Positions 23,445 through 48,309 of a stretch of DNA of 53,346 bases are shown here, piece by piece. This stretch comes from a bacterium (GTDB taxonomy: Archaea > Thermoplasmatota > Thermoplasmata > Lutacidiplasmatales > UBA184). Each line of letters opens with the position of its first letter. The stretch's first letter is position 1. The notes below the pieces were generated by a model. The model did not search any database and was not told where the DNA came from. It saw only the letters and a list, made by a program, of their open reading frames with translations. The stretch is from positions 1-53,346 of the forward strand of contig DAIDCO010000006.1 in the NCBI GenBank assembly GCA_027309555.1, given 5' to 3'. Made by a program: the position numbers and the translations under genes.

Positions 23445-23482
23445 CCCGCGCCCGGCGCTCGAGGTGAAAGGAGCTATCAGCG

Positions 23483-26382: not shown

Positions 26383-26408
26383 AGCGACCGGCCGCTACGG
26401 GATGGATC

Positions 26409-29410: not shown

Positions 29411-29433
29411 CCGGTGAGACGCGGGTCTACCGG
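29411..29433 (+). promoter_or_regulatory. stable hairpin in the predicted 5' leader of the substrate-binding-protein gene
   Basis: CCGGTGAGAC-GCGG-GTCTACCGG forms 9 bp with one bulged G. The flanking CCACCGG (29408..29414) and CCGGTGG (29436..29442) can form a mutually exclusive alternative helix. Confidence 0.3.
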
Positions 29434-29467
29434 GTCCGGTGGCGATGGAGGGCCGAGGAGAAAACGA

Positions 29468-30787: not shown

Positions 30788-30848
30788 TCGACGGAGGCAT
30801 CCCCACGGCGAACCCCCACGAAACTCCGAATCAGGAGGGCTAGGTTTC

Positions 30849-31739: not shown

Positions 31740-32725
31740 GCTCGACCCCGTCCGCCCTCCCGTCCGCGGCGGGGGCCCGCCGAGAGATCGCCCGGCTTCT
31801 CCGGTGGAATCACCGTCGGTCGATCCTTCTCGGAGTCTTCGGCCTGCTTGCGCTCCTCCCGATCGTGTACCCGAGCCCGTACACGATCGCCACCGTCCTG
31901 TTCTACATCCCGTGGTACCTCGCCATGGCCCAGAGTTGGAACATCTCGGGGGGGTACAGCGGCCAACTGAGCTTCGGGCACTGGGGATTGCTCGGAGTGG
32001 GGGCGTACACGAGCGCCATCCTCGCCGTGACCTACGGCTGGAACCTCCTGGCCGCGATGGCGATGGCCGCCGTCGTCACGTTCCTCTTGGGGCTCCTCAT
32101 CGGGTTCATCGGCGCGGCGCTCCGGGGGCCCTACTTCACCATCGCGACCCTGGCGAGCGCCGCGCTCATGCAGCTGATCCTCCTCAACTGGAAATCGCTG
32201 ACCCTCGGCTCGCTCGGCTTTCCGATCTTTTTCATTATCGTTCCGCCGACGGACCTCTACTACGGTGCGCTGGCGCTCGGGGCGGTCGCGACCGCGATGG
32301 TCTACCTCATCTCCCGCAGCCGGATCGGCCTCGCGTTCCAAGCGATCCGCGAGAACGAGGACGTCGCGACCGCCACGGGCATCTACGCGCGGGGCTACAA
32401 GGCGCTCGCCTTCGGCCTCAGCGCGTCGATCATGGGTCCGGTGGGAGGGCTCTACGCCTTCGCGTCGCACTACATCGACCCGACGTCCGCCTTCAATCTG
32501 CTCTACAACCTCCAGATCATCCTGATGGTCGTGGTCGGAGGGCGGGGCAAGGTCCTCGGTCCGCTCGTCGCGGCCGTCCTCTTCGCCTGGGTCTTCGAGG
32601 TCGCGTTGACGAGCTTCAACGTCTACAACTACCTCCTCACCGGCGTCGTCATCTTCGTCGCGGTCCTGCTCATCCCCCGGGGCATCTTCGGGTTCCGAGG
32701 CATGCCGAAGCTCCTTCAGTTCTGA
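31736..32725 (+). CDS. ABC transporter permease, LivM-like
   Basis: GTG 31736 overlaps the LivH-like stop (GTGA). Motifs GGYSGQLSFGH and VVGGRGKVLGPL. Confidence 0.9.
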   Translation: MSSTPSALPSAAGARREIARLLRWNHRRSILLGVFGLLALLPIVYPSPYTIATVLFYIPWYLAMAQSWNISGGYSGQLSFGHWGLLGVGAYTSAILAVTYGWNLLAAMAMAAVVTFLLGLLIGFIGAALRGPYFTIATLASAALMQLILLNWKSLTLGSLGFPIFFIIVPPTDLYYGALALGAVATAMVYLISRSRIGLAFQAIRENEDVATATGIYARGYKALAFGLSASIMGPVGGLYAFASHYIDPTSAFNLLYNLQIILMVVVGGRGKVLGPLVAAVLFAWVFEVALTSFNVYNYLLTGVVIFVAVLLIPRGIFGFRGMPKLLQF

Positions 32726-32774
32726 GCCGACGGGTCCCTGGAAACTCGGCCCGACCGCGCGAGCCCGCCGCGAT

Positions 32775-33539
32775 CTACATCCCGAGGAATGCCCGCCGGA
32801 TTTCGGGATGGTCGAGGAGCTCTCGGGCGGACCCCTGGTCGACGATTCGTCCTTGGGAGAGCACGTAGGCCCGGTCAGCGATCTGGAGGATCTGGCGGAC
32901 GTTCTGCTCCACCGCGAACACGGTCACGCCCCGGTCCGCGAGCGAACGGAGCGTCTGGAAGACCCGCGTGACGACCTGGGGGGCGAGGCCCAGCGACGGC
33001 TCGTCGACCACAAGGAGGCGCGGGCGGGCCATGAGCGCGCGTCCGATCGCAAGCATCTGCGCCTCCCCCCCCGAGAGGGTCTTTGCCGACTGCCGCGCGC
33101 GTTCCCGCAGGATCGGGAACATCGCGCAGACCTCTTCGTACGTCTCCTCGAAACGGACCCGTGCCGGCCGGAGATAGGCGCCGAGGGCGAGGTTGTCCCG
33201 GACGCTCATGTTGGGGAACACGTGCCGCCCCTCGGGGACGAGGGAGATACCGGTCGCGACGATCGACTCGGGAGAACGGCCCGTCAGCTTCCGTTCCCCG
33301 AGGTACGTGATCCCGCTCGAGGTCGGGATCAGCCCCGTGATCGCCCGTAGCAGTGTCGTCTTGCCCGCTCCATTCGGGCCCACGAGCGCCGTGAACCGGT
33401 GTTCGGGAATCTCGAGACTGACCTCGTGGAGGACATCCATACGGTCGTAGCCCGCGCGCAGGGACTCGATTCGCAGCGAGCCCGCACCGGCGGCCGCATC
33501 GCCCGGCGCGGCGGGTTGCGCGGAAGGAGCGGAGGACAT
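32775..33539 (-). CDS. ABC transporter ATP-binding protein, LivF-like
   Basis: The C-terminal 254 aa of composite ORF 32775..34367. Walker A GPNGAGKTT, VPEGRHVFPNMSV, signature LSGGEAQML, Walker B LLVVDEPS. Confidence 0.9.
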   Translation of the reverse strand: MSSAPSAQPAAPGDAAAGAGSLRIESLRAGYDRMDVLHEVSLEIPEHRFTALVGPNGAGKTTLLRAITGLIPTSSGITYLGERKLTGRSPESIVATGISLVPEGRHVFPNMSVRDNLALGAYLRPARVRFEETYEEVCAMFPILRERARQSAKTLSGGEAQMLAIGRALMARPRLLVVDEPSLGLAPQVVTRVFQTLRSLADRGVTVFAVEQNVRQILQIADRAYVLSQGRIVDQGSARELLDHPEIRRAFLGM

Positions 33540-33571
33540 GCGGAGACCGCCGGCGGGAACGCTCCGGTAGA

Positions 33572-34198
33572 TTAAGCGTTCGTCCGCGGGGCGAGGGAGG
33601 CGAGAAGCTCGGAGGAGCTCACGACCGCCCCCACGGTGTCCGCGAGGTTGCGGAGCGCGGCGCGGTGGAGCTCTTCGTCGATCCCGGCGACCGCGTCCCG
33701 CACGATCACGACGTCGAGGTCCCGGGCAAAGGCGTCCCGGGCGGTCGCGTCGACGCAGACGTGCGAAAGGACCCCCGTCAGGACGACGGAACGGACGCCT
33801 GCTCCCTCGAGCCGGTCCGCGAGGTCGGTACCGAAGAAGCCGGAGTACCGGCTCTTGTAGACCACGGGCTCCTCGGCGGTCGGCGTGAGTTCTCGGACGA
33901 TCTCGGTCTCGGCGGAACCGGGCGTGAAGAACGGCGCGGAGCGGGTCGAGTACGCCCGAGGGAGCACGTGGTGGAGGCGCGCCGGATAGTCCGAGCCGTC
34001 CGCCCGATAGCGGTAGGCGGTGTAGAGGCGCGGCCACCCCGCGGCCCGGAACCGCTCGCGCAGGCGCTGGATGGTCGGGACGAGGTCCCCCGCGTCGCGC
34101 AGGCCCCGACCGTGTCGGGCGTACGCGCCGTCCGGGGCAACGAACCCAACCTGCATGTCCACGATCAAGAGCGCGGGGCGTTCCAGGTGGGCGAGCAT
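33572..34198 (-). CDS. isochorismatase-family cysteine hydrolase (Iso1)
   Basis: 208 aa with the catalytic D-K-C elements: LLIVDMQ, VVYKSRYSGFFGT, GVLSHVCVDATARDA. Confidence 0.85.
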   Translation of the reverse strand: MLAHLERPALLIVDMQVGFVAPDGAYARHGRGLRDAGDLVPTIQRLRERFRAAGWPRLYTAYRYRADGSDYPARLHHVLPRAYSTRSAPFFTPGSAETEIVRELTPTAEEPVVYKSRYSGFFGTDLADRLEGAGVRSVVLTGVLSHVCVDATARDAFARDLDVVIVRDAVAGIDEELHRAALRNLADTVGAVVSSSELLASLAPRTNA

Positions 34199-34220
34199 GG
34201 CGCGAGTATCGAGACGAGGG

Positions 34221-34227
34221 ATTTAAG
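34221..34227. promoter_or_regulatory. single shared TATA-like element ATTTAAG between divergent start codons 34198 (-) and 34255 (+)
   Basis: It lies 22 nt from the complement ATG and 27 nt from the + ATG. There is no other AT-rich element in the 56-nt gap. Confidence 0.5.
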
Positions 34228-34254
34228 CATCGAATGGCTGCCGAGGCGGTTTCC

Positions 34255-35457
34255 ATGAGCACGAGGGGCCGGCCGCTCGACGGGCTACGGGTCGTGGAGC
34301 TCGCCCAGGGGATCGCGGGACCGTACTGCGCGATGGTCCTCGCCGACCTCGGCGCGGACGTGATCAAGGTCGAGATTCCCCGGGTCGGCGACCTCGCCCG
34401 GGGCTGGGGACCGCCGTTCGCCTCGCCGCATAACTCGGCCTACTTCCTTTCGGTCAACCGCAACAAGCGCTCGGTCGAGCTCGACCTCAAGTCGCCGTAC
34501 GGTAAGGAGGCCCTGCGACGGCTGGTGACGGAGGCCGACGTGCTCGTCGAGAACTTCCGGCCCGGCACGATGGCCGACCTCGGCTTCGACGTCGCCACGC
34601 TTAGGACGCTGCGGCCGAACCTGCTCATCGCCTCCGTCACGGGATACGGGCCGGGGGGTCCGAGTCGCAACGACCCCTCGTTCGACCTCATCGCCCAGGC
34701 CCGGTCGGGGTTGATGAGCGTCACGGGCACGGTCGCCGGAGACCCGATCCGGGTCGGGATCGCCCTGTTCGACCTCGCGGCCGGCCTCTACGCCGCGATC
34801 GGGGTCCTGGTCCAGTTGCGCGAGCGCGACGCCGGACGCGCCACCGTGCCGGTGGAGGTGAACCTCCTCGATACCTCGGTGTCGATGCTGACGCATTGGC
34901 TGCCGATCCTGAGCCTCGAAGGCAAGGTCCCGCCGCCGAGCGGAACCGCGCACCCGCTGATCGTCCCCTATCAGGTCTTCCCCACCCGAGAGGGATTCGT
35001 GGCCCTCGGCGTGTCGACGGACGTCCTCTGGCACCGGTTCTGCAGCGCGCTCGGGCTCGGCGCGATCGAGAACGACCCGAAATTCTCGACGAACGCCGCC
35101 CGCGTCGCGCATCGGAGCGAGGTGCTCGCCTTCGTCCTTCCCGCCCTCGCCCAATGGACGGCGCCCGAGGCCGCCGCCGAGATGAGCCGGGCGGGGGTCC
35201 CCTGCGCGGTGGTCGCCCGGATCGAAGATCTGCCGCGCGACCCCCAGGTCGTTTTCAACCGGTCGATCGAGACAATGTCGGCGCCCCACGCAAGCTCGGT
35301 GATGGTCGGGGGCTCGCCGCTCCGTTCTCTCCTGCCCGAGGAGGAGTCGCTCGTGCGCCGGCCCGCCCCGGACCTTGGAGAGCACACCGAGGAGGTCCTG
35401 CGCGAGATCGGGCTGTGGCCGCCGGTCCGAACCCCGGCCCGTGAAGGGGGCCGATGA
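34255..35457 (+). CDS. family III CoA-transferase (CaiB/BaiF-like)
   Basis: Opens MSTRGRPLDGLRVVELAQGIAGPYCAMVLADLGADVIKVE. ATG 34255 is preferred over 34234 because it lies 27 nt after the ATTTAAG box. Confidence 0.9.
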   Translation: MSTRGRPLDGLRVVELAQGIAGPYCAMVLADLGADVIKVEIPRVGDLARGWGPPFASPHNSAYFLSVNRNKRSVELDLKSPYGKEALRRLVTEADVLVENFRPGTMADLGFDVATLRTLRPNLLIASVTGYGPGGPSRNDPSFDLIAQARSGLMSVTGTVAGDPIRVGIALFDLAAGLYAAIGVLVQLRERDAGRATVPVEVNLLDTSVSMLTHWLPILSLEGKVPPPSGTAHPLIVPYQVFPTREGFVALGVSTDVLWHRFCSALGLGAIENDPKFSTNAARVAHRSEVLAFVLPALAQWTAPEAAAEMSRAGVPCAVVARIEDLPRDPQVVFNRSIETMSAPHASSVMVGGSPLRSLLPEEESLVRRPAPDLGEHTEEVLREIGLWPPVRTPAREGGR

Positions 35458-36272
35458 AGGCGATCGACGTGGTCGCGAACCTTCGGAACGCCCACTACGT
35501 GAACGCCATCCGACCGTACATGGAGGAGGCGTGGAAGACGCTGCGCCAGGACATGGACCGCCTCATCATCGCCCCGGAACGAATGGTCGAGGAGATGGAC
35601 CGGGCCGGCATCGAGCGTGCGTTCCTCATCGCGGCCAAGGGCGAGGGCTGGGAGGTGCCGTACGAGGACGTGGCCGAAGTCGTCCGCGAGTACCCGGACA
35701 AGTTCTCGGCGCTGGCCGGCTTCAACCCGTTCCACGGCATGAAGGGCGTCGCGCGACTGGCCGAGGCGGTCGAGAAGCACGGCTTCATCGGGGCGCACGT
35801 CTACCCGCACTGGTTCCGGCGGGCGCCGAACGACGCGATCTACTACCCGTTCTATGCGAAGTGCGTCGAGCTCGACATTCCCGTCCAGATGCAGGTGGGC
35901 CACGCGACCCCGATGACGTACCTCCCGTCGGTCGCGCACCCGATCGCGCTCGAGGACATCGCGATCTACTTTCGCGAGCTACGGATCATCGGCATCCACA
36001 TGGGCTACCCGTGGACCGAGGAGATGATCTCGGTCGCCTATCGGTTCCCGAACATCTACATCGCCCCGGACGCCCACGCACCGAAGTACTGGGAGCCGCG
36101 ATTCGTCGACTACCTGCGGACTCGAGGGAAACGGAAGGTTCTCTTCGGTACGGACTACCCCATCGTCGGCTTCGAGCGGGCGATGGCCGAGCTCGCGGAC
36201 CATCGCCTTCCGGACGAGGTCCTCGAGCGGTTCCTGCGGGAGAACGCCCGGGAGGTCTACCGACTTCACTGA
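35454..36272 (+). CDS. amidohydrolase_2 (ACMSD/LigI/LigJ-like metal-dependent hydrolase/decarboxylase/hydratase)
   Basis: 272 aa with an ATGA overlap onto the CoA-transferase stop. TIM-barrel hydrolase pattern with HVYPHW, IGIHMGYPW and LFGTDYP. Confidence 0.8.
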   Translation: MKAIDVVANLRNAHYVNAIRPYMEEAWKTLRQDMDRLIIAPERMVEEMDRAGIERAFLIAAKGEGWEVPYEDVAEVVREYPDKFSALAGFNPFHGMKGVARLAEAVEKHGFIGAHVYPHWFRRAPNDAIYYPFYAKCVELDIPVQMQVGHATPMTYLPSVAHPIALEDIAIYFRELRIIGIHMGYPWTEEMISVAYRFPNIYIAPDAHAPKYWEPRFVDYLRTRGKRKVLFGTDYPIVGFERAMAELADHRLPDEVLERFLRENAREVYRLH

Positions 36273-36346
36273 GCGGGAGCGGCCTCCGGGGACGCACGCT
36301 GATAAACCCGGGTCGCCGTAGACCCGCGGAGCAACCCCGCGGAACT

Positions 36347-37243
36347 ATGAACGCAGCCGTACGACGTCCCTCGCTGGGCGCGCGCCTCGCGGCCGGACCC
36401 ATCGTCGTGGCCCCCGGTGCCTACGACGCCCTCTCGGCCCGGCTCGTCGAACGGGCCGGCTTTCCCGCGGTGTACGCGAGCGGTGCCGGCGCCTCCTACA
36501 GCCTCCTCGGTTCCCCCGACATCGGCCTGCTCTCGTTCGCCGAGATGCGGGACCAAGTCTCCCGGATCGCGGCCGCGGTGGGGATCCCGGTGATCGCGGA
36601 CGGCGACACCGGCCACGGCAATGCGCTCAACGTCCGGCGGACCGTCCGCGAGTTCGAGTCGGCCGGGGCGAGCGCGATCCAGCTCGAGGACCAGACGTTC
36701 CCCAAGCGATGCGGCCACCTGAGCGAGAAGACCGTCATCCCGACATCGGAGATGGTCGGGAAGCTCCGCGCGGCGGCGGACGCTCGGGCTTCCTCCGAGA
36801 CCCTCGTCATCGCGCGCACCGACGCGCTCGCTGTGGAAGGCGTGGATGCCGCGCTCGAGCGCTTGCGGGCGTACTCGGAGGCCGGGGCGGACGTGCTGTT
36901 CCTCGAGGCCCCTCCCGACGTCCCGACGATGCAGCGCGCCTGCGCCGAGCTCGGCCGGCCGATGATGGCGAACATGGTCGAGGGCGGGAAGACGCCGCTC
37001 CTCTCGGCGGCCGAGCTCGAGAAGATCGGATACCGACTCGTCATCTTTCCCGGCGCGGGCGCGCGGGTCGCCGCGTTCGCTCTGCGAGAGCTCTATACGA
37101 CGCTCGCCCGGGAGGGAACGACATCGTCCCTCCTCGACCGTATGCTGCTCTTCGACGAGCTCAACCGAGTCGTGGGCCTTCCCGAGCTCCGGGCGACGGG
37201 GGCGCGGTTCCAGGGGTCCTCCTCCACGTCGAGGCCGGAATGA
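36347..37243 (+). CDS. isocitrate lyase/PEP mutase-family C-C lyase (methylisocitrate / dimethylmalate lyase-like)
   Basis: ORF trimmed to ATG 36347. Motifs: DGDTGHGN, the lyase-type catalytic loop FPKRCGHLSEK with Cys, and IARTDA. Confidence 0.88.
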   Translation: MNAAVRRPSLGARLAAGPIVVAPGAYDALSARLVERAGFPAVYASGAGASYSLLGSPDIGLLSFAEMRDQVSRIAAAVGIPVIADGDTGHGNALNVRRTVREFESAGASAIQLEDQTFPKRCGHLSEKTVIPTSEMVGKLRAAADARASSETLVIARTDALAVEGVDAALERLRAYSEAGADVLFLEAPPDVPTMQRACAELGRPMMANMVEGGKTPLLSAAELEKIGYRLVIFPGAGARVAAFALRELYTTLAREGTTSSLLDRMLLFDELNRVVGLPELRATGARFQGSSSTSRPE

Positions 37244-38526
37244 GCCGCCCCCAGACGCAGATCGAACGCACCCTCTCGCTCCATGCGACCGAGGCGCCGG
37301 GTCGCCCGGTCGAACCCGAGGAGTTCGTCGAGGTCGAGGTCGATCGCCTCGTCCTGCTCGATATGGCCGCGACCCATCCGGAGTTCCTCGCCCACCTGCC
37401 ACGCCGCGTTCACCGCCCCGAGCGGGTCGCCTGGGTCTTCGACCACCTCGTCCCCGCGCCGACCGTCGAGCTCGCGTCGGGCCTCGTGAAGCTCCGCGAG
37501 CTGGCCGCACGCTGGGGCATCACCTCGGTCTTCGACATCGGCCGGGGCGGCATTTCGCACCCGCTCATGGCCGAGAAGGGCTGGGTCCGCCCGGGCGAGA
37601 TCCTCGCGAACACCGATTCGCACACCTGCGCCGCGGGCGCGCTCGGCTGCGCCGGCCGGGGGGTCGGCATGCTCGAGGTCATGAGCATCCTCTCGACCGG
37701 ACGCACCTGGTTCCGGGTCGGGGAAACGGTCCGTGCGAGCCTCTCCGGACACCTCGCACCGGGGGTCGCGGGGAAGGACGTCTTCCTTTCGCTGGCCGGG
37801 GAGTTCGGCGCGATCCCCGGCCGGAACATCGAGTTCGCCGGTGACGGGATCGCCGGACTTCCGATTCCCACGCGCCAGGCGATCGCGACGATGTGCGCGG
37901 AGATCAGCGCCGAGTTCGCCCTCTTCCCCCCCGACGCCCGCGCGCTCGACTACGTCCGCGCCCGCGTGCCGGCCGACGAACCCCTCGCCCCGGTCCGCGC
38001 CGACCCGGACGCGTCGTACGCCGCAGAGTGGCGGGTCGACCTCTCGGGGGTCGAGCCGCTCGTCGCGCTCCCGAACCGGGTCGCCCGGAACGTCCGGCTC
38101 GTCTCCGAGGTCGCGGGGGTGACCATCACGCGCGCGGTGGTCGGCTCGTGCGCGAACGGCACGATCGAGGACCTGGAAGCGGTCGCGAACGTGCTCCGCG
38201 GCCGCCGCGTGCATCCCGGCGTCGTTTTCACGGTGACCCCCACCACCTCCGACGTCATGGCGGAGGCCGCCCGTCGGGGGCTGATCGACACGATCGTCGC
38301 GGCGGGCGCGCTCGTCACGAGCCCGACGTGCGGCGCCTGCTTCGGGGGCCACATGGGGGTCCTCGGCGACGGGGAGGTCTGCGTGACGAGCACGACTCGC
38401 AATTTCCAAGGACGGATGGGCTCGCCGAACGCGAAGATCTACCTTGCATCGAGCGCGACCGTGGCCGCGAGCGCCGTCGCGGGTTGTCTCGCCGACCCGC
38501 GGGGACTCGAGGGGAAGCGCCCGTGA
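37240..38526 (+). CDS. aconitase-family dehydratase large subunit (LeuC/HacA/DmdA-like)
   Basis: ATG 37240 overlaps the lyase stop (ATGA). Motif NTDSHTC and Fe-S cysteines in GSCANG and SPTCGACFG. Confidence 0.88.
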   Translation: MSRPQTQIERTLSLHATEAPGRPVEPEEFVEVEVDRLVLLDMAATHPEFLAHLPRRVHRPERVAWVFDHLVPAPTVELASGLVKLRELAARWGITSVFDIGRGGISHPLMAEKGWVRPGEILANTDSHTCAAGALGCAGRGVGMLEVMSILSTGRTWFRVGETVRASLSGHLAPGVAGKDVFLSLAGEFGAIPGRNIEFAGDGIAGLPIPTRQAIATMCAEISAEFALFPPDARALDYVRARVPADEPLAPVRADPDASYAAEWRVDLSGVEPLVALPNRVARNVRLVSEVAGVTITRAVVGSCANGTIEDLEAVANVLRGRRVHPGVVFTVTPTTSDVMAEAARRGLIDTIVAAGALVTSPTCGACFGGHMGVLGDGEVCVTSTTRNFQGRMGSPNAKIYLASSATVAASAVAGCLADPRGLEGKRP

Positions 38527-39008
38527 AGCTCGTCGGCCGCGCCTGGGTCTTCGACGACGACATCAACACCGACCTCCTCTATCCCGCGGCCTGTTTCCGC
38601 CTCCCGGTGGAGGAGCGACCGGCGCTCACGATGAGCGCGAACCGGCCGGGGTGGTCGCGGGAGGTCCGCCCCGGCGACCTTCTCGTCGCGGGAACGAACT
38701 TCGGAACCGGATCCTCCCGACCCGCCGCGGACAACCTGAAGGCGCTCGGGGTCGCGGGCGTCGTCGCGGAGTCGATCAACGGCCTCTTCTTCCGCAATGC
38801 GATCAACACGGGACTCCCCGTCCTCGAGGCGCCGGGCGTGCGCGCGTTCGTACGCGAAGGCACCCGGGTCGAGATCGACCTCGACACCGGAGCGATCCGG
38901 TCGGAGGGACGGACCCTGAACGTGCGGCCGCTGCCCGGCTTTCTCGCCCGGATCCTCGCGGAGGGGGGGATCCTCCCCCGGCTCCGCAAGGAAGGCTATA
39001 TCGACTAG
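38523..39008 (+). CDS. aconitase-family dehydratase small subunit (LeuD/HacB/DmdB-like)
   Basis: GTG 38523 overlaps the large-subunit stop (GTGA). GTNFGTGSSRPAA occupies the position of the LeuD G-x-NFGCGSSRE-H-A loop but is diverged. Confidence 0.85.
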   Translation: MKLVGRAWVFDDDINTDLLYPAACFRLPVEERPALTMSANRPGWSREVRPGDLLVAGTNFGTGSSRPAADNLKALGVAGVVAESINGLFFRNAINTGLPVLEAPGVRAFVREGTRVEIDLDTGAIRSEGRTLNVRPLPGFLARILAEGGILPRLRKEGYID

Positions 39009-39037
39009 CGCGGTTCCGCCGCGTGCGAGGGATCCGG

Positions 39038-39730
39038 ATGCGGCATCCATGGGAATCGATGATGGACGGGCTCGATCGCGAGGTCGTCACGGCCGCCGGA
39101 TACGGAAAGGAGCGGCCGCTGGGAAAGGCCCCGGTCCTTCTCGTGATCGACGCGCAGTACAACTACGTCGGAGAGGACCTCCCGATCCTCGATTCGATTC
39201 GGAAGTTCCCGACGAGCGTCGGCCACGCGGCGTACGAGGCCTTGCCGCAGGTACTCGCCCTCGTCCGGGCCTTCCGGGAACGGAAGCGTCCGGTGATCTT
39301 CACGACCGTCGCTCCGAAGGAGGCGCTGCTCCCCTTCTCGATCAGCGGCCGCGTCCACGCCGACCGCAAGTCGGAAACGCTGGTCGCCGGCCACCGCGGC
39401 ACCGAGATCGTCGAGGCGCTGCGACCCGAGCCCGGCGAGGTCGTTATCGACAAGGCGTTCGCGAGCGCCTTCCTCGGGACCCCGCTCGCGACGATCCTCA
39501 CGCTGCAGCGGGCCGATACCGTGGTGGTCTGCGGCGGCACGACCAGCGGCTGCGTGCGCGGGACCGCGGTCGACGCGGCGGGTCTCGGGTACCATGTCGT
39601 GGTCGCCGAGGATGCGGTCTTCGACCGCATCACGCTCTCGCACGCCGCGAGCCTGCTCGACCTCTGGATGAAGTACGCGAACGTGTATCCCGCCGAGCGG
39701 GTCCTCGAGTGGGTCCGCTCGCTCCCATGA
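39038..39730 (+). CDS. isochorismatase-family cysteine hydrolase (Iso2; N-carbamoylsarcosine amidase / maleamate amidohydrolase-like)
   Basis: ORF trimmed to ATG 39038. Catalytic elements: LLVIDAQ, VIDKAFASAFLGT, CGGTTSGCVRGTAVDA. Confidence 0.85.
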   Translation: MRHPWESMMDGLDREVVTAAGYGKERPLGKAPVLLVIDAQYNYVGEDLPILDSIRKFPTSVGHAAYEALPQVLALVRAFRERKRPVIFTTVAPKEALLPFSISGRVHADRKSETLVAGHRGTEIVEALRPEPGEVVIDKAFASAFLGTPLATILTLQRADTVVVCGGTTSGCVRGTAVDAAGLGYHVVVAEDAVFDRITLSHAASLLDLWMKYANVYPAERVLEWVRSLP

Positions 39731-41112
39731 GCGACCTCCTCCTCAAGAACGCCCGCCTCGTTTTCCCGCACCGCGGGGTCGTGGACGGCGAGATCGGGAT
39801 CTCAGGCGGCCGCATCGACTCGGTCGGAAAGGACCTCGGGAGGGCCGACCACGAGATCGACCTTCACGGCGCGCTCGTCGGCCCCGGGATCGTCGACCCG
39901 CACACGCACCTCGGGATCTACCGTGCGGCCCACGAGGACGCCCGGACCGAATCCGAATGCGCGGTGCGCGGCGGCGTCACGACGATGGTGACCTACTGGC
40001 GCGTCGGGGAACCGTACACCGACGGGCTCGTGGCCTACGGACGCGCCTTCGGGGAGTTCCGCGAGCGGCTAGAGGGGCAGATGCACACCGACTACGCGGT
40101 CAACCTCGGCATGCTGACCCGCGCGCACCTCGGCGAGGTCCCCGACCTCGTCCACCGACAAGGCGTGACGACCCTCAAGTACTTCGCGCACTACGAGGGC
40201 CGCGCGGACATCGGCCACGACCTCGATACGGGGTACTTCTTCGCGCTCGCGGAAGAGGTCGCTCGCCTCTCCCCGGCGGTGCCGGCGATCCGGTTGAGCG
40301 TCCACAGCGAGGACCCCTACGTGGTCCGGGAGGCTACCGACCGGGAAAAGAAGGCCGGGGGAAACGACCTCGAGGCCTACCGTCGCGCCCGGCCCGAGCT
40401 CGCGGAAGCCATAGCGGTCGACCGCCTCGGCGAAGTGGCCCTCGCGACCCGGGCGCCGATGATCCTCCCGCACGTGAGCTCCGCCATCGGCTACGCCCGC
40501 GCGCACGAGTTCGTCGCGCGGGGCGCGGACCTGACGATCGAGACGAGCCTCCACTACCTCACGCTGACGACCGAGAGCCCGGCCGGGATCCTTGCGAAGG
40601 TGAATCCCGCGGTCCGACGGGCCGAGGACGTCGAGGCGCTCTGGTCGGCCGTCGCCGCCGGCGGGCTTGGTTGCATTGGAAGCGACCACGCCTCGAATCT
40701 CCGGCAAGAGAAGTCGGAGCTCTGGAGCGCGAAACCGGCGTTCGCGGGCACGGGTCTCCTGTTGCCGCTCCTCTTCGAGGAAGGGGTCGTGCGGCGCCGG
40801 CTCCTCTCGCCGGAATCACTCTGGGGGATCCTCGCCGAGAACAACGCGCGGGCCCATGGGCTCTTTCCCCGGAAGGGGGCCCTCGTCCCCGGCGCCGACG
40901 CCGACTTGGTGGTCCTGGGGAAGCTCTCGGAGCCGCGCCGTGTGACGGTCGAGTCGGTCCACTCGGCCAGCGACTACTCCCCGTACGAGGGCCGGGAGCT
41001 CCACCACGTCCCCACCCATACCTTCGTGCGGGGCGAGCTCGTGGCCGACGCGGAGGGGGTCCGTGGGCCAGGCCATGGGGCGTACCTCCACCGTCCGCTC
41101 GGCCTCGACTGA
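39727..41112 (+). CDS. cyclic amidohydrolase, dihydropyrimidinase/hydantoinase type (A3)
   Basis: ATG 39727 overlaps the Iso2 stop (ATGA). Metal-site elements: DPHTHLG, TTLKYF, LSVHSED, ILPHVSS, GSDHAS. Confidence 0.9.
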   Translation: MSDLLLKNARLVFPHRGVVDGEIGISGGRIDSVGKDLGRADHEIDLHGALVGPGIVDPHTHLGIYRAAHEDARTESECAVRGGVTTMVTYWRVGEPYTDGLVAYGRAFGEFRERLEGQMHTDYAVNLGMLTRAHLGEVPDLVHRQGVTTLKYFAHYEGRADIGHDLDTGYFFALAEEVARLSPAVPAIRLSVHSEDPYVVREATDREKKAGGNDLEAYRRARPELAEAIAVDRLGEVALATRAPMILPHVSSAIGYARAHEFVARGADLTIETSLHYLTLTTESPAGILAKVNPAVRRAEDVEALWSAVAAGGLGCIGSDHASNLRQEKSELWSAKPAFAGTGLLLPLLFEEGVVRRRLLSPESLWGILAENNARAHGLFPRKGALVPGADADLVVLGKLSEPRRVTVESVHSASDYSPYEGRELHHVPTHTFVRGELVADAEGVRGPGHGAYLHRPLGLD

Positions 41113-41133: not shown

Positions 41134-42513
41134 CTACGCCGCGCGGGCGGGAACGAACTGCCCGCGCCCGGCGAGGTCCGGCACCTCGCCCGGGAAGACC
41201 CCTTCGGCGACGGTGACCCCGCGGCTCACGGTCCGGACCGGGACGCCCGTGAGCTCCCAGCCTTCGAACATCGTGAACTCGCTGTGATGGTGCAGCCGGT
41301 CGTTCCGGATCGTCGTCGTCGCCTTCGGGTCGACCAGCACGAAGTCGGCGTCCGCCCCGAGCTGTAGGACGCCCTTCCGGGGATAGTAGCCGAACCGGCG
41401 GGCCGGACCCTCGGCGAGGAGGTAGAGCAGTCGATCCCAGTCGAGGCGCCCGGCAAACGCCTCCCGGAGCAGTACGGGGTACATCGTCTCGCTGCCGGGG
41501 AAGCCGGGCGGGATCGAGAAGATGTCCGCCGCGCCGGGGGCCTTCTCCGCGCTCGGGGCCGCGTGGTCGGAAGCGAGGAAGTCCACGGTGCCGTCCCGGA
41601 CCCCGGCCCACATCGCGTCGACCTCGGCGCGGCTGCGGAGCGGTGGGTTGACCTTCGCGTAGGGACCCCGATCGCGGTAGGCCGACGTGTCGAAGAAGAG
41701 GTAATGCGGGCACGTCTCGACCGAGAGGTCGGCCCCGGCGGCGCGCGCGGCGCGGACGGTGGGGAGCGTGAACCCGCTGCTCAGGTGGACGATGTGTACG
41801 GCCGCGCCGGCGGCGCGCCCGAGGCGAGCGACGCGACCGACCGCGTCGTCTTCGGCGACGGTCGGTCGGGAGTCGGTGTAGACGTCGGGCGTCGTCCGCC
41901 CGGCCTCTTTCAGCCGGCGGGTTGCCTCCGCGACGATCGAGGGGTTCTCCGCGTGGACTTCGAGGGGGGCGCCGGTCCCGGCGAGCCGCTCGGCGACCGC
42001 AAGGATCGTCGCGTCGTCGCACGCGGTGTACTCTCCGACGGGGTTCCACCCCAGGTACACCTTCACGCCGGCGACCCCGGCGCGGACGAGCGCCGGGATC
42101 TCCGCGAGGTTCCCGGCGCAGCCACCGCCATGCACCCCGAAATCCACGACCGAGCTCGCCCGGCCGAGGGCGACCTTCGCCTCGAGCGACGGGAGCGTGA
42201 GCGTGGGAGGGCAGTGCTCGGGGGTCGACGCGGCCTGCTCGACGAACGTCGTAACTCCCCCCGACGCGCAGGCCCGGCTCCCCGTGCCGATGTCCGTGCG
42301 GTCGGGGCGCCCGTAGGTGAAGTGGGTGTGGGTGTCGACGGCCCCCGGCAAGAGCAGAGCGCCGCGGGCATCGATCGTGCGGTCCGCGACGGGGAGGTGG
42401 GCATCCGTACAGATCCGAACGACGCGACCCGCTTCGACCGCGATCCCGGCGGAGACCCACTCCCCCCGCCACCGTAGGCGGGCGGAGCGGACCGTGAGGT
42501 CGACGGGGCTCAC
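41134..42513 (-). CDS. cyclic amidohydrolase, allantoinase/dihydroorotase/L-hydantoinase type (A4)
   Basis: ORF 41134..42666 trimmed to GTG 42513, which overlaps the upstream stop (GTGA). Metal-site elements: DTHTHFT, AGVKVY, LEVHAEN, HIVHLSS, ASDHAA. Confidence 0.88.
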   Translation of the reverse strand: MSPVDLTVRSARLRWRGEWVSAGIAVEAGRVVRICTDAHLPVADRTIDARGALLLPGAVDTHTHFTYGRPDRTDIGTGSRACASGGVTTFVEQAASTPEHCPPTLTLPSLEAKVALGRASSVVDFGVHGGGCAGNLAEIPALVRAGVAGVKVYLGWNPVGEYTACDDATILAVAERLAGTGAPLEVHAENPSIVAEATRRLKEAGRTTPDVYTDSRPTVAEDDAVGRVARLGRAAGAAVHIVHLSSGFTLPTVRAARAAGADLSVETCPHYLFFDTSAYRDRGPYAKVNPPLRSRAEVDAMWAGVRDGTVDFLASDHAAPSAEKAPGAADIFSIPPGFPGSETMYPVLLREAFAGRLDWDRLLYLLAEGPARRFGYYPRKGVLQLGADADFVLVDPKATTTIRNDRLHHHSEFTMFEGWELTGVPVRTVSRGVTVAEGVFPGEVPDLAGRGQFVPARAA

Positions 42514-43349
42514 GCCGGCGCTCCCCCGAGACGCTCGACGACCGTGCCGCCGGGGTTCGTCCACCCCGAACGGAAGTAGAACGCTGACTCGATGTGACGC
42601 GGGGCGAGAGGCAGGAGCTCCTCGTTTTCGGCAGGGTAGAGCTTCAGTTCGCCGCTCCCCTTCCAAACGTCGGTGACGACCCGGCCGGTCGTTTGGACTC
42701 GGACGAGCTCATGGACCGAAGGGGGGCGGCGCGGGTCGACGTTCGGAAGGTAACGGATCCCGAAGTACGTCCCGAGGCGGGGCAATTCCTCGGCCCGCGA
42801 GGCGCTCTCGAGCGTCACCCCCGCGAAAAGGATCCGCTCTCCGTGGCGAGAGAGCACCCCTGCGAGGCGGGCGCCGGGCCCGATCGGGGGCAATTTCGGG
42901 TGCAGAGGGTGAAGCCGCGTCATGCGGACCTGCGCGACCTTCTTCGGCCAGCCGTTGAGCCAGCCCCGCGCCATCGACCAGTCGTGGTCGGTCCAGATGA
43001 AGGGCAAGTAGACGCCGGCCTCCCCCCGGTAGCGGCAGGAGACGGTGACGATCGCTTCGCCGTACTGGGTGGCCTCGGGCTGGCGGTAGGCGAGGTCCGG
43101 GTCGCCGTCGCTGACCGAGATGACCTCCGTGACGCGGGCGGTCACCCGGTCGGGCTCGGGCCCCGGCTCGAGGGGAGGCGGGAGGACCCGGCGCACGGCT
43201 TCGGGGTCGGCCCGGTAGACGACCTGGATCACATCGGAGGCAAAGTGCCACGGCGGGTGGTCGACGATCCCGCTCTTCCCTTCGGGTCCGAACGGGGGCG
43301 TATACCCCGGAGCGGTCAACGGAGGGGTCCCGGGAGGGGATGCGTTCAT
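42510..43349 (-). CDS. acetoacetate decarboxylase (ADC)-family protein
   Basis: The C-terminal 279 aa of composite ORF 42510..44399. The N-terminal pattern PPWHFASDVIQVVYRADPEAVRRVLPPPLEP and the overall size fit PF06314-type proteins, judged from memory. Confidence 0.7.
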   Translation of the reverse strand: MNASPPGTPPLTAPGYTPPFGPEGKSGIVDHPPWHFASDVIQVVYRADPEAVRRVLPPPLEPGPEPDRVTARVTEVISVSDGDPDLAYRQPEATQYGEAIVTVSCRYRGEAGVYLPFIWTDHDWSMARGWLNGWPKKVAQVRMTRLHPLHPKLPPIGPGARLAGVLSRHGERILFAGVTLESASRAEELPRLGTYFGIRYLPNVDPRRPPSVHELVRVQTTGRVVTDVWKGSGELKLYPAENEELLPLAPRHIESAFYFRSGWTNPGGTVVERLGGAPA

Positions 43350-43360
43350 GGAACTCGCCG

Positions 43361-44104
43361 CTAGGCGGGCGCTCCGGCCGCCGGTTCCGCCCGGCCGAGG
43401 TAGGCTTCGACCACGGCCGGGTCCTGGCTCGCCGCACGCACGTCGCCATTGAACAGGAGCTGGCCGTGGTGGAGGACGAGGACCCGGTCGATCAGCTGGA
43501 AGAGCGACTCTACCACGTGCTCGGTGACGAGCAACGTGATCCCGCGGGCGTGGATGCGTCGGATGATCTCGACGATCTCGCTCAGCTCGGCGGGGTTGAG
43601 ACCCGCCATGACCTCGTCCAGCAGCAAGAGCTCGGGAGAGGCCGCGAGCGCCCGGGCGACCTCGAGCCGCTTGCGCCCCGCGAGGGTGAGCTCGTTCGAC
43701 CGGGCCGAGGCGCGGTCCGCGAGGTCGGTGACCGCGAGGACCTCGTCGACCGTGAGCGGCGGCAGACCGGCCCGCGGGCGGCGGGCCCCGAAGAGCGCAC
43801 CGACACGGACGTTCTGCTCCACCGTGAGGTCCGGGAACGCCTGGGCGAGCTGGAAGGTCTGAACGAGGCCACGGTGGCAACGGCGGTGCGGCGCCCAACG
43901 GGTGACGTCGGTTTCCTGGAATACGATCCGTCCGCTCGTAGGAGGGATCATGCCGGACAAGAGCGCGAACAGCGTGGTCTTCCCGGCCCCGTTCGGACCG
44001 ATCAGCCCGAGGATCTCCCCTTCGGCAATGTCGAAGGAGACGTTCGAGACGGCCATCACTCCCGCGAACCGCTTGGTGAGGCCTTCCACCGTGAGCAACG
44101 TCAC
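43361..44104 (-). CDS. ABC transporter ATP-binding protein, LivG-like
   Basis: 247 aa. Motifs: LLTVEGLTKRFAGVMAVSNVSF, Walker A GPNGAGKTT, LLLLDEVMAGL. GTG 44104 lies 25 nt after a CCTTTAAG box. Confidence 0.9.
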   Translation of the reverse strand: MTLLTVEGLTKRFAGVMAVSNVSFDIAEGEILGLIGPNGAGKTTLFALLSGMIPPTSGRIVFQETDVTRWAPHRRCHRGLVQTFQLAQAFPDLTVEQNVRVGALFGARRPRAGLPPLTVDEVLAVTDLADRASARSNELTLAGRKRLEVARALAASPELLLLDEVMAGLNPAELSEIVEIIRRIHARGITLLVTEHVVESLFQLIDRVLVLHHGQLLFNGDVRAASQDPAVVEAYLGRAEPAAGAPA

Positions 44105-45556: not shown

Positions 45557-46290
45557 GCGCCGCCTCCGCTCACCGCCTCGCGCTGGTCACCGGGGCGAGC
45601 CGGGGCCTCGGCGCCACGGTGTCGCGGTTCCTCTCGGCGGAGGGGTTCGACCTGGTCCTCACCGCCCGGGGCCGTCCCGCCCTCGAGGCAGCGGCCTCCT
45701 CCCTCGCCTCGTTCGGAACGCGGATCGTGGCCGAGGCGGGGGATGTGAGCTCGCCCGCCCACCGACGGACGCTCGCCGAGCGCGTACGGGAGATGGGCCC
45801 GGGGCTCGACCTCCTCCTCAACAACGCGAGCGAACTCGGTCCCTCTCCGTTGCCTCCGCTCGCCGAGTACCGCCTTTCCGAGCTCGAGTCCGTCTTTCGG
45901 ACCAACGTCGTGGCTCCGCTCGGACTCGTCCAGGAGCTCCTTCCGAACCTCGCGCGGGGTCACGGGCTCGTGGTCAACATCTCGAGCGACGCCGCGCTCG
46001 CGGGCTACCCTGGCTGGGGGGGCTACGGCGCGAGCAAGGCCGCGCTCGACCTCGTCAGCCGGACGCTCGCCCGCGAGCTCGCCGACCGTCCGGTCGCGGT
46101 GGTCTCGGTCGACCCGGGAGACCTTCGGACCGCGATGCACCAGGCCGCGTATCCGGGCGAGGACATCTCCGACCGCCCGCTCCCGGAGGTCACGATCCCG
46201 TTCTGGGCGTGGCTCCTTCACCAGCCGAGAGCGGAGATCTCGGGCCAGCGCTTCCGCGCTCAGGCCGACCGGTGGGAGGTACCGGGATGA
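45553..46290 (+). CDS. short-chain dehydrogenase/reductase
   Basis: ATG 45553 overlaps the regulator stop (ATGA). Motifs LVTGASRGLG, NNAS, YGASKAAL. Confidence 0.85.
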   Translation: MSAASAHRLALVTGASRGLGATVSRFLSAEGFDLVLTARGRPALEAAASSLASFGTRIVAEAGDVSSPAHRRTLAERVREMGPGLDLLLNNASELGPSPLPPLAEYRLSELESVFRTNVVAPLGLVQELLPNLARGHGLVVNISSDAALAGYPGWGGYGASKAALDLVSRTLARELADRPVAVVSVDPGDLRTAMHQAAYPGEDISDRPLPEVTIPFWAWLLHQPRAEISGQRFRAQADRWEVPG

Positions 46291-47365
46291 AACCCGTATC
46301 GCTCGGATTCCCCGTCCCGAGGGCGCTCGGGGCCGACCGGACCCCCGAGGACCGGGGATGCCCGAGAGACGAAGTCCGGCTGCTCGTGAGCCGCCCCGAG
46401 GGAGATACCCATCATCGGTTCCTCGACCTGCCGACTCTCCTACGGCCCGGCGACCTCCTCGTGGTCAACGAGAGCGCGACGGTCCCCGCCAGTCTCGAAG
46501 CGCGGGGCGCCTTCGGGAGGTTCCGGGTGAGCCTCTCGACGGCCTACGGGCGCGGCCTCTGGCTGATCGAGCCCCGGAAAGGCTTCTCCGAGCCCGGGCC
46601 GCTTCCGCTCGCTCCCGGGGATCCCCTCGAGATCGGCGGAGTGGCGGGCCGGTACGTCGCGGATTTTCCGGGCATTCCGCGCCTTGGGTTCTTCCATGCC
46701 GAGGGCGACCTCGCGGCGTCGATGCGCGAGCGGGGACGGCCCATCCGGTACGGCTACCTGTCCCGGGAGTACCCGATCGAGGCGTACCAGACGCTCTTCG
46801 CACGGGTCCCGGGGAGCGCCGAGATGCCGAGCGCAGGCCGACCGTTCACCCCGCGCCTCCGGGAGGGACTTCGTCGTGCGGGGATCGACGTGGCCCCGAT
46901 CCTCCTCCACACCGGCGTCTCGAGCCTGGAGGCCCGCGACATCGCCCCGCTCACCGTACCGGTCTACCCCGAGCCGTTCGAGGTCCCGACCCGGACCGTG
47001 GAGGCCGTCCGGCGCGCCCGCGAGCGCGGCGCCCGCGTGGTCGGGGTCGGCACCACCGTCGTGCGCGCCCTCGAGTCGGCGACCGATGCGGGAGAGCTCC
47101 GGCCCGCGCGGGGCTTCACGCGGCTCTACGTCGGCCCCGCGACGGCCTCCTCACGGGTTTCCATGAGGCCGAATCGACCCATCTCGCGCTCCTCGCCGCG
47201 TTCGCGGGCCTACCGCGCCTGCGACGAGCGTATCGCACCGCGATCGACTCGGGGTATCTCTGGCACGAGTTCGGCGACAGCCACCTGCTCTGGCGCGACG
47301 GGGCGGACGGCCGGTCCGGCGGCGGAGGAGGCACGACGTCCGGCCGTGGGGGCGCGAGCGCCTAG
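46287..47365 (+). pseudogene. QueA-like S-adenosylmethionine ribosyltransferase-isomerase family gene, interrupted by a frameshift near 47136..47141
   Basis: ATG 46287 overlaps the SDR stop (ATGA). The N-terminal 283 aa are collinear with QueA (PGDLLVVNESATVPA, GVGTTVVRALESA) up to ...TRLYVGP. The conserved C-terminus DGLLTGFHEAESTHLALLAAFAG...GYLWHEFGDSHLL continues in the -1 frame (ORF 46358..47365). The original frame decays into R/S/P-rich nonsense. Confidence 0.75.
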
Positions 47366-47379
47366 GAGCCGACGCGAAC

Positions 47380-48309
47380 CTACTTCGCGGACCCGAGACC
47401 GGCCCGGCCCCGCAACGCGTGATAGAACCCGCCGAAGCTCGTGGCGGTCGGGGTGCGCAGGCCCTGGAGGCGCATCTGCTCCCGGACCTCTTTCGGGCTC
47501 TGCCGGAGGTCGAGCGTCTTCGTGGTGTCGAAACGGTACTGGAACGTGCCCGACGGGCCCCGGGGGAATGCCTCCCAGTCCTTCGCGGTCGTGGGACGGA
47601 GCTCGTGGAGCCGCTGGCCCTCGCGCGGCGCGAACGCCGGCAGGGTGAGGTGCTCCTCGGTGAGCCAGAGCATCGTCGCGTCGCGGATCGCCTGGCTCGT
47701 CGTCTCATCGAGCGCACCGGGGGCTACCTGCGACTGCACCCAGTCGACGAGCGCATCGAAGGTCTTCTCCGCGTTCTCCTCGAGCATCACGAGGACCGCG
47801 ACCCGGATCGCGCTGCGACGCAGCTGCTGGATCCCCGTGTCGCTCAAGCGGTACTCGACGCTGAGCCCAAGCAGGCTTTCCGCGTTGTCCCCGAGGTCCT
47901 TCAGCGGCAGCACGAAGAGCGGGACCGGCGCCTCGGTCTCCTGGATATACCACAACGAGAACTCACGGCCGTTCGTGATCAGGGCGAGCGGCACCTTGGC
48001 GGCCTTCGCGTGCTCCGCGACCTCACCGGCATCGGAGACGTTCCCGGTCCGCTCGCGGACATCGAGAAAGAGGCGGGGCTGGCCGTCCCCGTTGAGGAGG
48101 GCGTAGTCGACGTGACGGTCCGAGCCGCGCACGGGGAAGTCGAGGAATACCTGGCGCTTGTCGTGCGGGTCCCATCCGATCGCGACGAGGAACGGATTGA
48201 CGATCCAGTGACGGATCTGCTGTTCGGTGACATCCTCGACGTCCCGCAGGACCTCTCCCGCGACCTGCGAGAACTCGGTGAGCCGCCGGCTCAGATCGAC
48301 TGCTTCCAT
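47380..48309 (-). CDS. HsdR_N-like (type I restriction R-subunit N-terminal, PD-(D/E)xK-fold) domain protein with an uncharacterised C-terminal domain
   Basis: 309 aa. TEQQIRHWIVNPFLVAIGWDP...HVDYALLNGDGQPRLFLDVRE matches my recollection of the HsdR_N pattern, with D-V-R in place of E-x-K. ATG 48309 lies 26 nt after TTTTAAA. Confidence 0.55.
   Translation of the reverse strand: MEAVDLSRRLTEFSQVAGEVLRDVEDVTEQQIRHWIVNPFLVAIGWDPHDKRQVFLDFPVRGSDRHVDYALLNGDGQPRLFLDVRERTGNVSDAGEVAEHAKAAKVPLALITNGREFSLWYIQETEAPVPLFVLPLKDLGDNAESLLGLSVEYRLSDTGIQQLRRSAIRVAVLVMLEENAEKTFDALVDWVQSQVAPGALDETTSQAIRDATMLWLTEEHLTLPAFAPREGQRLHELRPTTAKDWEAFPRGPSGTFQYRFDTTKTLDLRQSPKEVREQMRLQGLRTPTATSFGGFYHALRGRAGLGSAK

Follow-up and report, generated by a model that had tools for sequence, protein, structure and literature searches.

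A seven-gene operon ending in Iso2 and A3

The window analysed here is a stretch of 53,346 nucleotides of archaeal DNA (GenBank assembly GCA_027309555.1, contig DAIDCO010000006.1, positions 1 to 53,346; Thermoplasmatota, Lutacidiplasmatales, UBA184), and the subject is a pair of adjacent genes in it, an isochorismatase-like cysteine hydrolase (Iso2) and a cyclic amidohydrolase (A3). The window is contig C81 of an assembly of 2.04 Mb in 114 contigs that is 90% complete. Its GC content of about 70% crowds the raw lists of open reading frames with shadow frames, and genes were called by third-position GC and then checked against Pfam and NCBIfam.

Iso2 and A3 are the last two genes, at the 3′ end, of a run of seven on the forward strand (34255-41112). 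The run opens with a family III CoA-transferase (34255-35457; PF02515, 367.8 bits), followed by an Amidohydro_2 gene for a COG2159-type metal hydrolase, decarboxylase or hydratase (35454-36272; PF04909, 133 bits) and a C-C lyase of the PrpB/ICL superfamily, of the 2-alkylmalate or methylisocitrate lyase type (36344-37243; PEP_mutase, 166 bits). The LeuC-like large subunit (37240-38526; PF00330, 264 bits) and LeuD-like small subunit (38523-39008; TIGR02087 LeuD/DmdB, 138.7 bits against a cut-off of 109) of an aconitase-family hydro-lyase come next. Iso2 (39038-39730) is predicted to be the amidase for a ring-opened product, and A3 (39727-41112), a binuclear-metal enzyme of the hydantoinase/allantoinase/dihydroorotase superfamily, is the predicted ring opener. 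Four of the six junctions are 4-nt overlaps: the stop of the CoA-transferase overlaps the start of the Amidohydro_2 gene by 4 nt and LeuC and LeuD meet in a GTGA. The ATGA overlap of Iso2 with A3 described in the initial annotation was read directly at 39727-39730, with the Iso2 stop TGA at 39728-39730 and the A3 ATG at 39727-39729, and the whole operon including this overlap is kept in five orthologous Thermoplasmata loci. The chosen starts agree with the orthologues: 34255 gives a CoA-transferase of 400 aa, the same as in locus L012, the ATG at 36344 gives a lyase of 299 aa as in its orthologue, and those of Iso2 and A3 fit orthologue lengths of 229 and 461 aa at 99-100% coverage. No aminotransferase, deaminase, amino-acid oxidase or ammonia-lyase was found among the operon genes by Pfam annotation.

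The two hydrolases and their partner enzymes

Iso2 is a protein of 230 aa matching PF00857 with 118.7 bits, where the gathering cut-off is 27. It contains the motif GGTTSGCVR, and its Asp38, Lys139 and Cys172 fall in the triad columns of solved cysteine hydrolases, which bears out the D-K-C triad read earlier from the letters alone; the three residues were aligned with the triads of 4L07 and of Iso1, and Cys172 also aligns with the Cys of 26ST, for which the printed alignment begins at residue 70. The top PDB matches are the N-carbamoylsarcosine amidohydrolase 26ST (110.6 bits, E 9e-31) and 4L07/4L08 (103.6 bits for 4L07, E 1e-28), which we take to be the maleamate amidase Ami of Pseudomonas putida S16. 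Further matches are 1NBA, the carbamoylsarcosine amidase (CSHase) of Arthrobacter (71.6 bits), and NicF (3OT4, 69.7 bits, and 3UAO), the identity of the latter two structures as NicF being confirmed in PMC5806882. Structures of RutB, BiuH, nicotinamidases and isochorismatases scored at most 40 bits against Iso2, the nicotinamidases giving weak and partial matches of 29-35 bits. By these bit scores, used in place of a reference tree, no other characterised enzymes of the superfamily are as close to Iso2 as the N-carbamoylsarcosine and maleamate amidases. Assignment as RutB (TIGR03614, 39.1 bits against a cut-off of 378) or BiuH (NF050097, 55.5 bits against 370) was rejected, and so was assignment as a nicotinamidase or an isochorismatase, for which the PDB scores are too low. 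Iso2 orthologues are 80-88% identical and bacterial relatives 40-48%, and several of the bacterial relatives at 44-47% identity carry the JGI name maleamate amidohydrolase.

An Asp-Arg pair of Iso2 (Arg197) is common to 26ST and 4L07. The matching residue of the Arthrobacter CSHase, Arg202, presumably binds the substrate carboxylate, and the motif suggests a small acyclic amide bearing a carboxylate as the substrate of Iso2. N-carbamoylsarcosine and maleamate are nearly isosteric, each with a terminal CONH2 two atoms from a carboxylate, and amide and carbamoyl chemistry in Iso2 are therefore inseparable by sequence alone.

The second isochorismatase-family gene of the window, Iso1 (33572-34198, reverse strand), points away from the operon, and the gene behind it encodes a LivF-like ATPase (32775-33440, reverse strand), in line with the initial annotation, where Iso1 heads the operon of that ATPase. 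Iso1 matches PF00857 with 152 bits against the cut-off of 27 and is 29% identical to Iso2. Its scores against the RutB and BiuH equivalogs (78.7 bits for TIGR03614 and 79.3 bits for NF050097) are both below the cut-offs, and its PDB matches 3HU5, 3IRV, RutB and EntB come at similar scores with no clear characterised clade. Iso1 is without the Asp-Arg pair that Iso2 has in common with the carbamoylsarcosine and maleamate amidases, and its role appears less clear than that of Iso2.

A3 (461 aa) matches Amidohydro_1 and Amidohydro_3 and aligns over its full length with the L-hydantoinase 1GKR (E 6e-44), which together with allantoinases and D-hydantoinases makes up its best and roughly equidistant PDB relatives. 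The metal ligands His59, His61, Lys151, His193, His249 and Asp320, that is the HxH, the carboxylated Lys, two His and the Asp of a binuclear site, align with those of 1GKR and are invariant across 27 relatives. The alignment of these 27 sequences was too diverse for the locus search, and a closer one of 11 sequences was used there. A3 is below the equivalog cut-offs for D-hydantoinase/dihydropyrimidinase (TIGR02033, 176 against 393), allantoinase (TIGR03178, 194 against 358) and dihydroorotase (TIGR00857, 173 against 279), and the best NCBIfam equivalog, ErtD (NF058538), gives 208 bits with a cut-off of 600. A housekeeping dihydroorotase was also considered for A3 and rejected, a separate PyrC-like gene being present on contig C30. 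Orthologues of A3 at 65-83% identity were found only in Thermoplasmata metagenome-assembled genomes (64-81% for the five loci that keep the Iso2/A3 overlap); the next tier is bacterial, at about 40%.

The canonical second enzymes of hydantoin and dihydropyrimidine degradation had been reported as not visible in the window, and a canonical carbamoylase encoded elsewhere and co-regulated had been named as an observation that would speak against a role of Iso2. The M20 'hydantase' model TIGR01879 gave no match over its cut-off in the whole assembly; two weak M20 matches, on other contigs, are ArgE/DapE-like and CpsA-like. The only CN_hydrolase gene of the assembly is on contig C52 and scores best against the glutaminase domain of NAD synthase. 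A canonical carbamoylase is thus likely absent from this 90% complete genome, and the earlier observation extends from the window to the assembly.

The partners upstream of Iso2 point to organic acids. The lyase has its best PDB matches in the petal death protein 1ZLP (E 8e-61), methylisocitrate lyases and the 2,3-dimethylmalate lyase 3FA3 (E 1e-55 to 1e-61 over 1ZLP, 1O5Q and 3FA3). It keeps the catalytic loop KRCGH (K-[KR]-C-G-H) and is below the prpB equivalog (279 bits, cut-off 354). The LeuC-like subunit is barely over the cut-off of the homoaconitate hydratase family TIGR01343 (386.4 against 385.7 bits). The substrate loop of the LeuD-like subunit reads CFRL, its Arg aligning with an Arg of the homoaconitase small subunit 2PKP and a Val of the isopropylmalate isomerase 3VBA; this loop is YLRT in homoaconitase and YLVM in isopropylmalate isomerase, and the LeuD-like members of the bacterial modules have a Lys at the position of the Arg. 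By analogy, the basic residue hints at a substrate with an extra carboxylate. The operon LeuCD was rejected as the housekeeping pair, as a separate housekeeping-like LeuCD pair is found on contig C80. For the CoA-transferase the best NCBIfam models are succinate-glutarate CoA-transferase (310 bits, cut-off 750) and succinyl-CoA:mesaconate CoA-transferase, both sub-threshold. The LeuCD-like hydro-lyase, the lyase and the CoA-transferase act on unsaturated or hydroxy carboxylic acids, not on amino acids. The best PDB match of the Amidohydro_2 protein is the uncharacterised BB4693 (3IRS), its matches to decarboxylases and 4-oxalomesaconate hydratase are weak, and homologues were found near A3-like genes at 42-45% identity in L019, L042 and L053 and at 36% in L084.

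Occurrence of the module and the surrounding island

The pairing noted in the archaeal window is real and conserved, and isochorismatase-type genes also directly adjoin cyclic amidohydrolases in several bacterial lineages. With Iso and A denoting the two hydrolases, the order in Fictibacillus enclensis is IclR-Iso-A-lyase-LeuC-LeuD-MFS-flavoprotein, in Paradesulfitobacterium ferrireducens and a second Bacillota genome (G460) Liv-lyase-LeuC-LeuD-ETF-flavoprotein-Iso-A-FadH/OYE-like, and in a third Bacillota genome (G326) lyase-LeuC-LeuD-A-Iso. An uncultured-bacterium contig (L016) has Iso-lyase-A, two Dehalococcoidia have Iso-lyase with A nearby, one Acidobacteriota locus has Amidohydro_2, lyase, A, Iso and CoA-transferase, and in L026 and L028 A stands with LeuCD and lyase. 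Iso comes before A in the archaeal operon as well as at L098 and L099, and A precedes Iso in G326 and four actinobacterial loci. Of the 52 bacterial loci retrieved with A3 as query, 11 have an isochorismatase gene no more than 10 kb from the amidohydrolase, against none of 30 Nitrososphaeria loci. Among 401 sampled Bacillota genomes nine have an Iso2-like gene, and three of these nine carry the module. In a quick tree, amidohydrolases linked to Iso are spread over four or more separate clades; the partnership was by this evidence assembled repeatedly, which argues that the linkage is functional rather than inherited.

Several other settings of these genes were recorded. The ammonia-oxidising Nitrososphaeria have a well-conserved clade of A-like amidohydrolases, 28-32% identical to the paralogues A1 and A2 of the window (L057, L060, L062-L068, L071-L075, L077, L080-L083, L085-L088 and L090-L096), with no partner genes within 10 kb. 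In 24 actinobacterial and Rubrobacter loci (for example L014:1405-2214) a PF04199 'cyclase' of the arylformamidase type lies beside A3-like genes, with a CoA-transferase, MmgE/PrpD and an HpcH-type lyase; this 'cyclase' may take the place of the isochorismatase-type amidase without being homologous to it. A flavoprotein of about 455 aa, of the soluble fumarate-reductase/flavocytochrome-c type with TcuA as a weaker match, is repeatedly found adjacent to A3-like amidohydrolases in Rubrobacter, Bacillota and other bacteria (L014, L015, L020, L021, L022, L027, L034, L089, L098 and L099). In Paradesulfitobacterium a 651-aa FadH/OYE-type Fe-S flavoenzyme is directly 3′ of the Iso-amidohydrolase pair (L099:10140-12095); it is just below the mycofactocin OYE-2 cut-off, with BaiCD and bilirubin reductase models also sub-threshold, and it may reduce the ring before hydrolysis.

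Among Iso2-like genes, one in Bacillota (37% identical; L114:6236-19941) is accompanied by TctABC, a nucleobase permease, a citrate/sulfate-type symporter, UbiD, LeuCD, a gene of the isocitrate/isopropylmalate dehydrogenase family and a dihydropyrimidine-dehydrogenase-like Fe-S flavoprotein, and this cluster has no cyclic amidohydrolase and no PrpB-type lyase. Another (L112:6360-13532) is flanked by TctC/TctA/TctB, a CN_hydrolase and a homologue of 4,5-dihydroxyphthalate decarboxylase (PDB 9JP7, E 1e-68) that has no Pfam match at E 1e-5. No CE4 gene was found at the Iso2-like loci without a cyclic amidohydrolase that were annotated (L109, L112 and L114), which have tricarboxylate or TRAP transporters.

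In the archaeal window the operon is part of a larger island. A Liv-type ABC importer with a binding protein (29570-30787) and two permeases (29570-32725 in all, forward strand; Peripla_BP_6 and two BPD_transp_2 matches) lies upstream, probably takes up the substrates of the island, and has its genes flanking the operon in the orthologous loci L012, L013 and L017 as well. Convergent to the operon is a unit (41134-44104) on the reverse strand with a LivG-like ATPase (43361-44104; ABC_tran), an ADC/MppR-like protein (42510-43319; ADC, 179.8 bits) and A4 (41134-42513; Amidohydro_1), a cyclic amidohydrolase paralogous to A3 with 34% identity; this unit is kept in L010, L011 and L017. The ADC/MppR-like gene overlaps the start of A4 (42510-42513). 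Further upstream the window encodes another pair of cyclic amidohydrolases (A1 and A2) as well as two MmgE/PrpD genes, one MmgE/PrpD gene being immediately 5′ of A1 with a junction at 24955-24958 (island part 22878-29229). Each paralogous cyclic amidohydrolase is thus tightly linked to its own partner, of a family that differs (A1 with MmgE/PrpD, A4 with ADC/MppR-like, A3 with Iso2), and the island may handle several related ring compounds by different second steps. A QueA-family gene (Queuosine_synth, 154 bits) is found at 46287-47400, 3′ of a helix-turn-helix regulator and a short-chain dehydrogenase/reductase. A second island on contig C48 (about 27000-38400) holds paralogues of three genes of the window, with 31% identity for the CoA-transferase, 31% for the PrpB-like lyase and 25% for the ADC-like protein.

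Proposed route, alternatives and known systems

On balance, Iso2 and A3 rather likely release the nitrogen in a conserved catabolic operon whose substrate would be a small carboxylated N-heterocycle, a cyclic imide being the most likely kind. The identities of the genes, their intact catalytic residues, the build of the operon and the conservation of the module are established here; the order of the reactions, amide rather than carbamoyl chemistry and the class of substrate are what we infer. A3 would open the ring of the imide hydrolytically to a half-amide, and Iso2 would hydrolyse the terminal amide to ammonia and a substituted maleate-, aconitate- or homoaconitate-like acid. The LeuCD-like enzyme would hydrate or isomerise this cis-unsaturated acid, the lyase, similar to PrpB and petal death protein, would cleave the substituted malate so formed to a 2-oxo acid plus a carboxylic acid, and the CoA-transferase would activate one of the products. 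D-hydantoinases are documented to hydrolyse cyclic imides (PMC13098106), a cyclic imidase and an amidase, both unrelated to the enzymes here, have been shown to salvage nitrogen in two steps in Aspergillus nidulans (PMC9304392), and RutB, NicF and BiuH act directly after ring opening in other heterocycle pathways (PMC5806882). The proposal in the initial annotation that Iso2 supplies the second hydrolytic step remains plausible and the best reading, given the top matches 26ST and 4L07, the conserved pairing and the absence of any canonical carbamoylase among the matches in the assembly. Its setting in a route from hydantoins or dihydropyrimidines to amino acids fits poorly with the LeuCD-like, lyase and CoA-transferase context that recurs in bacteria: the organic-acid partners, and an operon free of amino-acid enzymes, make a half-amidase giving a di- or tricarboxylate more likely than an N-carbamoyl-amino-acid hydrolase.

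Speculative candidate substrates are alkyl or carboxyalkyl maleimides such as hematinic acid, and tautomeric dihydroxypyridine carboxylates; among the latter, citrazinate would yield aconitate. Conversion of hematinic acid to pyruvate and glutarate would fit the best, sub-threshold match of the CoA-transferase, succinate-glutarate CoA-transferase. Nothing on microbial catabolism of hematinic acid-type maleimides or citrazinate was found in the literature searched. It is a bold and improbable extension that the pair with LeuCD and lyase forms an undescribed hydrolytic pathway for carboxylated maleimide-type imides, such as hematinic acid and the monopyrrole fragments of degraded haem and chlorophyll, in which the opened and deamidated ring would become a methyl-homoaconitate-like acid that is hydrated and split to pyruvate and glutarate (or 2-oxoglutarate and propionate). 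Such a pathway would provide a gene context for the orphan 'maleimide hydrolase' (EC number as in PMC11424739) and would make archaea and bacteria participants in the last stage of tetrapyrrole mineralisation.

Some of the results weigh against the cyclic-imide interpretation or narrow it. The top solved relatives of the pair, a carbamoylase for Iso2 and an L-hydantoinase for A3, are compatible with ureide chemistry, the Amidohydro_2 gene has no step in the scheme, and it is the spacing of the operon genes that suggests their co-transcription and translational coupling. Most of the closest bacterial A3 relatives (35-40%) are not beside an isochorismatase gene, and the Iso partnership is for this reason one of several solutions. 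Their neighbours are mostly a CoA-transferase (in 28 of the 52 loci), MmgE/PrpD (in 27 of the 52), a PF04199 cyclase-family hydrolase (in 24) and an HpcH-type lyase (in 20). Such clusters would encode a similar pathway that runs over CoA esters and uses another second hydrolase. The fumarate-reductase-like flavoprotein occurs in 10 bacterial loci of both kinds, Iso-linked and CoA-ester-type, and a search of the archaeal genome at E 1e-10 gave no homologue, so that archaea and bacteria may use different substrates. Quite different contexts are also seen for some Iso2-like genes (L097, L112 and L114).

The same ureide relationships are the strength of an alternative in which A3 is a hydantoinase or dihydropyrimidinase and Iso2 a non-canonical N-carbamoyl-(amino acid) amidohydrolase releasing an amino acid, CO2 and NH3. 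This would be a classical route for hydantoins, dihydropyrimidines or dihydroorotate in which an isochorismatase-fold enzyme stands in for the carbamoylase, as in the conversion of N-methylhydantoin via N-carbamoylsarcosine to sarcosine. N-carbamoylsarcosine amidohydrolase is the best solved relative of Iso2 and 1NBA also matches, L-hydantoinase, allantoinase and D-hydantoinase are those of A3, the assembly yielded no M20 or nitrilase-type carbamoylase, and the Bacillota gene of L114 is near a dihydropyrimidine-dehydrogenase-like gene and a nucleobase permease. Maleamate amidases, however, score almost equally against Iso2, whose relatives include those JGI-named maleamate amidohydrolase, and A3 is under every hydantoinase, allantoinase, dihydroorotase and ErtD cut-off. 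The conserved LeuCD-type hydro-lyase, the 2-alkylmalate/methylisocitrate-type lyase and the CoA-transferase use no amino acids, neither an aminotransferase nor an amino-acid oxidase or ammonia-lyase is encoded in the operon, and the Asp_Glu_race-family gene (PF01177) of Rubrobacter has no homologue in the genome at E 1e-10. We regard this route as somewhat unlikely.

A reversed order, with Iso2 first removing an exocyclic carboxamide in the manner of a nicotinamidase and A3 then opening a lactam to an amine or enamine, is allowed by the position of Iso2 5′ of A3 in the archaeal operon, L098 and L099, by the membership of nicotinamidases in the isochorismatase superfamily and by the fact that gene order alone does not fix the order of reactions. 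Against it, A precedes Iso in G326 and the four actinobacterial loci, nicotinamidase structures match Iso2 weakly and in part, and the Asp-Arg motif, as far as the presumed role of Arg202 in CSHase holds, suggests a small acyclic carboxylate-bearing amide; such a scheme is quite unlikely. That the adjacency is without pathway meaning, by compact-genome packing of unrelated functions or with biosynthetic LeuCD and lyase genes, has in its favour that 4-base overlaps are common in this GC-rich archaeal genome and that several occur in this island. It is nevertheless highly improbable with the pairing and the five-gene set recurring in two domains of life and in several gene orders, and with a housekeeping LeuCD and a PyrC-like gene elsewhere in the genome.

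The module is present in soil-type Thermoplasmata archaea and several bacterial phyla and probably handles a common environmental nitrogen heterocycle, and it provides a short and testable gene list for orphan imide and half-amide hydrolase activities. Many genes annotated as 'dihydroorotase', 'D-hydantoinase' or 'nicotinamidase-related amidase' are probably something else. No published pathway matching the module was found in the literature searched, which covered imidase/half-amidase, maleimide hydrolase, maleamate/N-carbamoylsarcosine amidase, dimethylmalate lyase with isochorismatase, hydantoinase with isochorismatase and methylisocitrate lyase, and citrazinate/isonicotinate. Two-step hydrolytic removal of ring nitrogen is known chemistry; the combination of a hydantoinase-superfamily opener, an Iso2-type hydrolase, a LeuCD-type enzyme and a PrpB-type lyase is what was not found described.

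A close parallel to Iso2 is in the creatinine/N-methylhydantoin route (1NBA, 3EEF and 26ST), where likewise a five-membered ring is opened and a cysteine hydrolase of the Iso2 clade removes the terminal carbamoyl or amide group. That route yields the amino acid sarcosine without partners of the LeuCD, lyase or CoA-transferase kind, and its ring opener is of the ATP-dependent HyuA/HyuB type, unlike the binuclear-metal A3. In the classical hydantoinase process and in reductive pyrimidine catabolism the superfamily and the metal site are shared with A3, but an M20 or nitrilase-type carbamoylase is used; here none was found, A3 is sub-equivalog and the operon adds organic-acid enzymes. The downstream half is paralleled by the nicotinate fermentation of Eubacterium barkeri, in which presumably the dimethylmaleate hydratase DmdAB and the 2,3-dimethylmalate lyase Dml act in the manner of the LeuCD-like enzyme and the lyase; compared by description, both have a two-subunit LeuCD-type hydro-lyase followed by a PrpB-superfamily lyase with a KRCGH loop. 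Nitrogen in E. barkeri is however released by a single enamidase, and a B12 mutase, absent here, is needed.

NicF and Ami of nicotinate and nicotine catabolism (3UAO; 4L07/4L08) belong to the same cysteine hydrolase clade as Iso2, and NicF yields ammonia and an unsaturated dicarboxylate directly after ring opening (PMC5806882). Their rings are opened oxidatively by a dioxygenase and a deformylase and maleate is converted to fumarate, whereas here the ring would be opened by hydrolysis, and hydration followed by cleavage is predicted for the product. The ureidoacrylate amidohydrolase RutB and the biuret hydrolase BiuH, also of the isochorismatase fold, act after ring opening (PMC5806882), and Iso2 is far below both equivalogs. 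The logic proposed for the module is also seen in systems of other folds. HxnM, like bacterial imidases such as BpIH, has a polysaccharide-deacetylase fold and HxnN is of the amidase-signature family, both different from A3 and Iso2. Cyclic-imide metabolism by an imidase and a half-amidase is known in Blastobacter sp. HxnM and HxnN of A. nidulans follow the same logic as proposed for A3 and Iso2, from imide to half-amide to dicarboxylate and ammonia (PMC9304392).

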